Assembly (NCBI RefSeq): GCF_003334815.1
Contig: NZ_QOWO01000007.1
From: Escherichia coli
GTDB taxonomy: Bacteria; Pseudomonadota; Gammaproteobacteria; Enterobacterales; Enterobacteriaceae
Length of the DNA stretch: 64,000 nucleotides
Direction: 5' to 3' (one strand)
The notes under the pieces are model-generated. The model had not been told where the DNA came from, did no database searches, and saw nothing but the letters and a program-made list of their open reading frames with translations. The position numbers and the translations under genes were made by a program. The first letter of the stretch is position 1; every line of letters begins with the position of its first letter. This document shows, one piece after another, positions 363 through 545 of the stretch.

Positions 363-545
363 TCATCGATCTTGTATCACTTTTTTGCCGGAAGTTGTTT
401 GCATTTTATTAGTTGGATAGGGTTTGTGGATTTTTGCTGGCTGACGGGCAAATAAAGTTTGTTTAATGGTTTGCTTATCTGCCAGTTGATTAATCACATG
501 GCGGGCTATCTGACCGCCAGCACCAAGAATCAGTACATTTTTCAT
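363..545 (-). pseudogene. ymjC: truncated NAD(P)-binding (NmrA/SDR-like) gene remnant
   Basis: 60-aa ORF MKNVLILGAGGQIARHVINQLADK...ARQPAKI = Rossmann N-terminus only, then unrelated tail and stop. Confidence 0.45.

Follow-up and report, generated by a model that had tools for sequence, protein, structure and literature searches.

The ymjC locus and its annotated features

We identified, in the window (the whole 64,000-nt stretch of E. coli DNA that was analyzed), an open reading frame of 60 codons at 363-545 on the reverse strand, with an ATG start, a TGA stop, and the translation MKNVLILGAGGQIARHVINQLADKQTIKQTLFARQPAKIHKPYPTNKMQTTSGKKVIQDR (Table 1). An earlier note on this DNA, made from the sequence alone, had reported this frame with exactly this translation; an exact sequence look-up further revealed that the product is identical to YMJC_ECOLI ("Protein YmjC" in UniProt). 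In RefSeq (PGAP), 408-545 is already listed as a pseudogene under the label "NAD-dependent dehydratase, incomplete, missing C-terminus". The start signals of ymjC are kept: its ATG is preceded, 8 nt upstream, by a GGGA Shine-Dalgarno-like motif, and the ymjD stop lies 5 nt before ymjC. An Rfam scan of window 1-3000 (E ≤ 1) returned two sub-threshold chance matches, neither at 363-545, so that this region contains no explaining RNA element. In a protein collection clustered at 90% identity, the 60-aa YmjC is grouped with 242-aa MpaA proteins, evidently a clustering artefact.

According to Pfam, the 60 residues match NAD_binding_10 (PF13460) with an E-value of 1.1e-05, residues 8-41 aligning with model positions 1-34 of 184. 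Position 1 of the model falls on residue 8, where the Gly-rich GxxGxxG/A dinucleotide-binding motif begins (GAGGQIA, residues 8-14); the complete domain (about 184 positions) is absent, only positions 1-34 being represented. PF05368 (NmrA) gave no match for the 60-aa frame at E ≤ 10, and no NCBIfam family matched it. The frame had been described in the earlier note as an NmrA-type N-terminus: it is indeed the start of an NAD(P)H-binding Rossmann domain, but "NmrA-type" is looser than the best family, PF13460, which comprises atypical short-chain dehydrogenases/reductases (SDRs).

Downstream of ymjC, tblastn placed residues 1-93 of MpaA at 281..3 (reverse strand), in agreement with the mpaA start given in the same note. 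Upstream, ymjD ("Protein YmjD") retains the first 19 and the last 2 codons of a hydrolase gene, with a GAT microhomology at its junction. The mechanical open reading frame of ycjY (616-1548, reverse strand) extends 12 nt beyond the RefSeq start, giving 310 rather than 306 aa, and this upstream start is the one in use according to a tetracycline ribosome-profiling study (PMC4909307). YcjY (616-1536, reverse strand) and the second alpha/beta hydrolase that other strains retain (1746-2678, reverse strand, in locus L003) both have sub-threshold matches to the NCBIfam model "UilS family quorum-quenching N-acyl-homoserine lactonase" (E-values of 2e-24 and 1e-20; bit scores of 87 and 74, with the cut-off at 400), which may offer only a hint of lactone or ester chemistry.

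Table 1. Features of the ymjC locus in the window, and the loci of other alleles used for comparison.
Feature	Position or locus	Strand	Basis or remark
mpaA 5′ part, murein tripeptide amidase, downstream of ymjC	1..281	-	annotation and tblastn
ymjC ORF, pseudogene remnant	363..545	-	ORF list and exact YMJC_ECOLI match
Foreign ORF tail, codons 47-60 and stop	363..407	-	equals L002 863-907
Direct repeat flanking the cassette, left copy, about 35-42 nt	370..411	+	repeat search family D1, 83% identity to 2816-2857
Deletion junction	407..408	.	±2 nt, 1-2 T common to both parental sides; blastn and by-eye alignment
SDR-derived part of ymjC, codons 1-46	408..545	-	100% identity to residues 1-46 of the intact 212-aa protein; PGAP pseudogene with the same coordinates; PF13460
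ymjD, 21 codons	551..616	-	in-frame deletion remnant of the second alpha/beta hydrolase (310 aa in L003)
ycjY, alpha/beta hydrolase, first operon gene, intact	616..1536	-	annotation and tblastn
pgrR (ycjZ), divergent LysR-type regulator of the cassette	1674..2573	+	annotation
Direct repeat, right copy, upstream of mppA	2816..2857	+	repeat search, spacer alignment
Type B allele	L002		639-nt SDR CDS between mpaA and ycjY
Type C allele	L003		same SDR CDS, with the second alpha/beta hydrolase gene between SDR and ycjY
Further lesions	L084/L085, L092, L090, L091		569-bp SDR deletion, O157-like frameshifts, NH-21 IS1, BS-04

The intact SDR gene in other E. coli strains

A comparison with genomes carrying an intact orthologue, which the earlier note had proposed, found a 212-aa gene (639-nt CDS), annotated as "SDR family oxidoreductase", at the same locus between mpaA and ycjY in other E. 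coli. By megablast match length, we divided the loci into type B (L002), type C (L003), and the window allele. The intact protein matches PF13460 over its full length (positions 1-184, 2.8e-53), and matches PF05368 only at positions 3-104 of 298 and far more weakly (4e-10); across its 212 residues, it also shares about 98% identity with the structure PDB 3qvo ("NmrA family protein"; 3.8e-137). Given these three matches, "NmrA/SDR-like" is a fair description of the gene. Between two intact SDR alleles, we counted 9 synonymous and 5 non-synonymous codon differences, a small sample whose pattern would fit a working SDR gene in the intact strains. Full-length homologues across phyla exclude the opposite direction of change, in which the 212-aa form would have arisen by extension of the 60-aa gene.

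A single 664-bp deletion separates the two alleles

Alignment with blastn placed window 1-407 on L002 501-907 and window 407-1700 on L002 1572-2865, the flanks being otherwise collinear; what is missing relative to L002 is 908-1571, 664 bp in a single clean gap. The missing segment comprises SDR codons 47-212 and the stop codon (500 bp coding), together with 164 of the 290 bp that separate the SDR gene from mpaA. With the junction marked by a slash, the window reads ...GCATTTT/ATTAGTTGG..., the left side in L002 ...GCATTTT/CATTGATG..., and the right side in L002 ...CTTGCT/ATTAGTTGG....

The break in the protein can be placed accordingly. YmjC residues 1-46, ending ...HKPYPTN, are identical to the intact protein and correspond to strands beta1 and beta2 of the Rossmann fold, with the Gly-rich loop and helix A between them; residues 47-60 (KMQTTSGKKVIQDR) are former spacer. 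The DNA encoding them lies in L002 164 nt downstream of the intact SDR stop, in the non-coding spacer upstream of mpaA. The earlier note had let the match stop at ...ARQPAKI (residue 39). Since the intact gene goes on with HKPYPTN, the break is at 46/47 rather than 39/40 and the foreign residues number 14. The same note was right that the remainder of the gene is missing: in a tblastn search with the 212-aa homologue, residues 1-46 were found at 545..408 (100% identity, E 6e-26), and nothing for residues 47-212 scored better than E 4.5. By tblastn and blastn alike there is no trace of these residues in the 64-kb window, and we conclude that the rest of the SDR gene is absent from it.

Several explanations of the junction were considered. 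A deletion mediated by microhomology or a repeat was set aside, only 1-2 nt being common to the two sides. A 5-nt TTATT register with a type C parent predicts one T more than observed and was not adopted. An IS-mediated deletion was rejected as well: no IS lies at or near the K-12 junction, and IS1 is seen only in another allele, that of strain NH-21. The left breakpoint falls within 0-5 nt of the left edge of the cassette described below, a coincidence of about 1-3% within a 290-bp spacer that was noticed post hoc; we found no trace of a recombinase or IS at 407/408 to account for it. We also noticed a promoter-like sequence made by the junction (TCCACA-16-TAAAAT, 430..403, reverse strand), whose -10 element spans the breakpoint. 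We treated this sigma-70-like match as chance, since 2 promoter-like sites were found where 3.3 are expected.

The SDR gene belonged to a four-gene cassette

The block formed by a LysR regulator and, divergent from it, ycjY, the second hydrolase, and the SDR gene is conserved outside E. coli (loci L004-L021). The four proteins of the Pseudocitrobacter block share 87, 92, 85, and 83% amino-acid identity with those of E. coli, and the blocks of Afipia, Mesorhizobium, and Hyphomicrobium share 72-74% (PgrR) and 81-84% (YcjY). Stenotrophomonas, Paraburkholderia, Caballeronia, and Achromobacter contain the block with a different LysR regulator, and Bacteroidota contain it in part. The same block is also found on a conjugative IncF plasmid of Klebsiella pneumoniae (NZ_CP084857.1; 3092-6639 in locus L094), beside an IS110-family transposase; the stretch with 79% DNA identity to E. 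coli is bounded exactly by the stop codons of pgrR and the SDR gene. The 72-74% identity of PgrR to alphaproteobacterial regulators suggests, from sequence comparison, that the block was transferred horizontally.

Salmonella and Enterobacter lack the cassette: there, mppA and mpaA are immediate, divergent neighbors with about 185 bp between them, and window 363..407 aligns to this single mpaA-mppA spacer. The two direct repeats in Table 1 correspond to this old spacer, duplicated at both ends of the cassette; the left copy is the one that encodes the YmjC tail. The genes pgrR, ycjY, ymjD, and ymjC are the remains of a four-gene cassette (about 408-2815) between mpaA and mppA. The absence of the cassette from Salmonella and Enterobacter, along with the old spacer on both sides, indicates that it was inserted in the E. 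coli lineage. In K-12, the four genes are leftovers of a mobile cassette wedged between two peptidoglycan-recycling genes.

Allele frequencies and repeated decay of the locus

We surveyed 5,426 complete E. coli genomes, in 5,418 of which megablast with window 1-1700 found the locus, with the gene order mpaA (reverse), pseudogene, ycjY (reverse), and pgrR (forward). The K-12 SDR junction, detected with a 100-nt probe across it (at least 80% covered), is present in 2,293 of the 5,426 genomes (about 42%), the deleted 664-bp segment in 2,943, the ymjD junction in 3,948, and the second hydrolase segment in 1,283. Junction-bearing and segment-bearing genomes add up to 5,236, which does not exceed the 5,418 with the locus; these totals, taken by themselves, are consistent with two sets of genomes that do not overlap, i.e., with no part of the gene having been relocated. 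We also searched for a "type D" allele (the K-12 SDR junction with an intact second hydrolase) using a chimeric probe, which matched only one doubtful assembly (BS-04), so the K-12 SDR junction is essentially always on the ymjD background. The BS-04 assembly is itself odd: gap-ridden, with a poly-A run at the junction and a different internal deletion of the hydrolase.

The cassette is eroding in E. coli through several independent lesions, and K-12 keeps only pgrR and ycjY intact. A second, independent SDR deletion (L002 1053-1621, 569 bp) leaves a 40-aa frame (L084) in about 15 genomes, together with a deletion of ycjY-pgrR; in an O157-like strain, the SDR gene and the second hydrolase are both frameshifted; and in strain NH-21, IS1 takes the place of the whole cassette between mpaA and mppA. 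The junction allele itself varies: in two of the 11 junction-bearing genomes sampled (L086 and L093), a 1-nt insertion in the tail, plus N3K, results in a 54-aa frame.

Origin and consequences of the ymjC remnant

We are highly confident that ymjC is the deletion remnant of the 212-aa SDR gene, an ordinary pseudogene, rather than an independent gene. The allele descends from an operon of ycjY, a second alpha/beta hydrolase, and the 212-aa SDR, divergent from pgrR. One deletion of 664 bp by illegitimate recombination (with 1-2 nt of microhomology) joined codon 46 to the spacer upstream of mpaA, and the frame now continues through 14 more codons to a chance TGA. Judging from the architecture of Rossmann folds, 46 residues could not form a dinucleotide-binding domain, and no oxidoreductase activity is expected, because the remainder of the dinucleotide-binding sheet and the whole substrate side have been lost. 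The remnant is probably transcribed, and perhaps translated, since it lies inside the ycjY operon with its start signals kept; any product is most likely a by-product. The truncation of ymjC is already known and annotated, and for that reason the finding itself matters little; what is added here is the exact 664-bp deletion with its breakpoints, its frequency in the population, and the loss of a hairpin.

This hairpin lies 20 nt after the intact SDR stop (L002 1052-1028, reverse strand), with an 11-bp stem (dG -15.3 kcal/mol, z -3.4) followed by TTTATT. The same terminator-like hairpin is kept in L003 and L084, and an analogue follows the Pseudocitrobacter gene. Its T-tract is weak (TTTATTAAAC), which makes its terminator activity only putative. 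The hairpin is part of the 664 bp missing from the K-12 allele, and no terminator-like site is left in window 200-1700, i.e., between ycjY and mpaA. Previous studies describe ycjY-ymjDC as a single unit whose promoter lies between ycjY and pgrR (PMC3946193), and list "ycjY-ymfDC-mpaA" in the PgrR regulon, the SELEX site at this locus being the ycjY/ycjZ spacer (PMC5934670). With the hairpin lost, no terminator-like site left, and these operon lists, it is plausible that transcription from the PgrR-controlled ycjY promoter now runs on into mpaA; hairpin loss may underlie the operon ycjY-ymjDC-mpaA that has been reported for K-12. However, mpaA must have its own promoter, as in Salmonella without the cassette, so the read-through may matter little.

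A further step would be that the deletion, by removing the terminator of the cassette, linked the ycjY operon, which is under PgrR control and was acquired horizontally, with the resident mpaA; we regard this as possible, though on balance doubtful. One could go further still and propose that the deletion was favored for this rewiring, which brings mpaA under the PgrR-repressed ycjY promoter and leaves ymjC as a spacer or coupling frame in ycjY-ymjD-ymjC-mpaA. Besides the hairpin and the placing of mpaA in the ycjY operon and PgrR regulon in the K-12 literature, the position of the breakpoint agrees with such a proposal: on its left, the deletion ends within 0-5 nt of where the ancestral mpaA upstream region begins, and leaves that region whole. 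On the other hand, many other lesions at the locus look like plain decay, and the second deletion allele retains the hairpin, so that hairpin loss was not required; we consider selection for rewiring possible, though on balance doubtful. The 42% frequency of the allele could nevertheless hide some benefit of the deletion. If the operon fusion is real, the K-12 circuit in which PgrR controls peptidoglycan recycling would be an accident of a 664-bp deletion, and it would be limited to the roughly 42% of complete genomes bearing the junction, being absent or weaker where the SDR gene is intact. E. coli strains differ in the share of the cassette that survives, and on this account PgrR-dependent control of mpaA might vary from strain to strain.

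Mentions of ymjC in the literature are screen hits: a trimethoprim MIC, a TraDIS signal, and a pan-genome association. A ymjC knockout showed a 2-fold shift in trimethoprim MIC that was not complemented (PMC8355897), which argues against a function of the YmjC protein, and the TraDIS signal is called unreliable for a 138-bp gene by its own authors. We set aside the phylogroup prevalence of "ymjC" in PMC9602453, where the allele behind the pan-genome cluster is ambiguous. In the accessible supplements of the tetracycline ribosome-profiling study (PMC4909307), ymjC, and with it a 60-aa product, is absent. These scattered mentions could be taken, along with the retained ATG and GGGA motif, with the place of the frame in a transcribed operon, 5 nt behind ymjD, and with an allele as common as 2,293 of 5,426 genomes, to mean that the 60 residues are an expressed small protein with an acquired function (a mini Rossmann peptide or a regulator) for which the allele is kept. 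We consider this very improbable. Conservation and expression of the 60-aa protein had been named in the earlier note as what would speak against a truncated gene; instead, the sequence is confined to a single deletion allele of recent origin in E. coli, its tail varies (the 54-aa variant), and the independent deletion leaves a different remnant of 40 aa. The uncomplemented trimethoprim phenotype, the unreliable TraDIS signal, the absence of an NCBIfam match, and the fold argument given above weigh against it as well. That the truncation is an artefact of laboratory strains or of assembly, as the K-12-like character of the window and nothing more might suggest, is refuted by 2,293 independent complete genomes of human, animal, and water origin that share the identical junction. 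As a deletion remnant, ymjC also calls for caution in reading screens: phenotypes listed under "ymjC, putative oxidoreductase" score a 46-codon remnant or polar effects.

Comparison with known systems

The ymjC of K-12 (b4525; YMJC_ECOLI) is the same feature at the same mpaA-ycjY locus, and we found no difference between the two. Its neighbor ymjD is similar in being a remnant of a cassette gene in the same operon that was produced by one deletion, but there the deletion is in frame and older or more widespread (3,948 genomes). Relative to the PF13460 family as a whole, ymjC shares the Gly-rich N-terminal motif and lacks everything after beta2, whereas the intact orthologue spans the whole domain. 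More distant solved PF13460 relatives of the intact protein include the Veillonella structures 3r6d/4ipt, biliverdin-IXbeta/flavin reductase (1hdo), and ChuY/ShuY, with E-values between 1e-19 and 1e-4. The closest solved structure, PDB 3qvo, which we take to be a structural-genomics entry from Shigella flexneri, contains ymjC residues 1-46 as residues 23-68 of its chain; 3qvo is a full two-lobed protein, of which ymjC retains about 22%.
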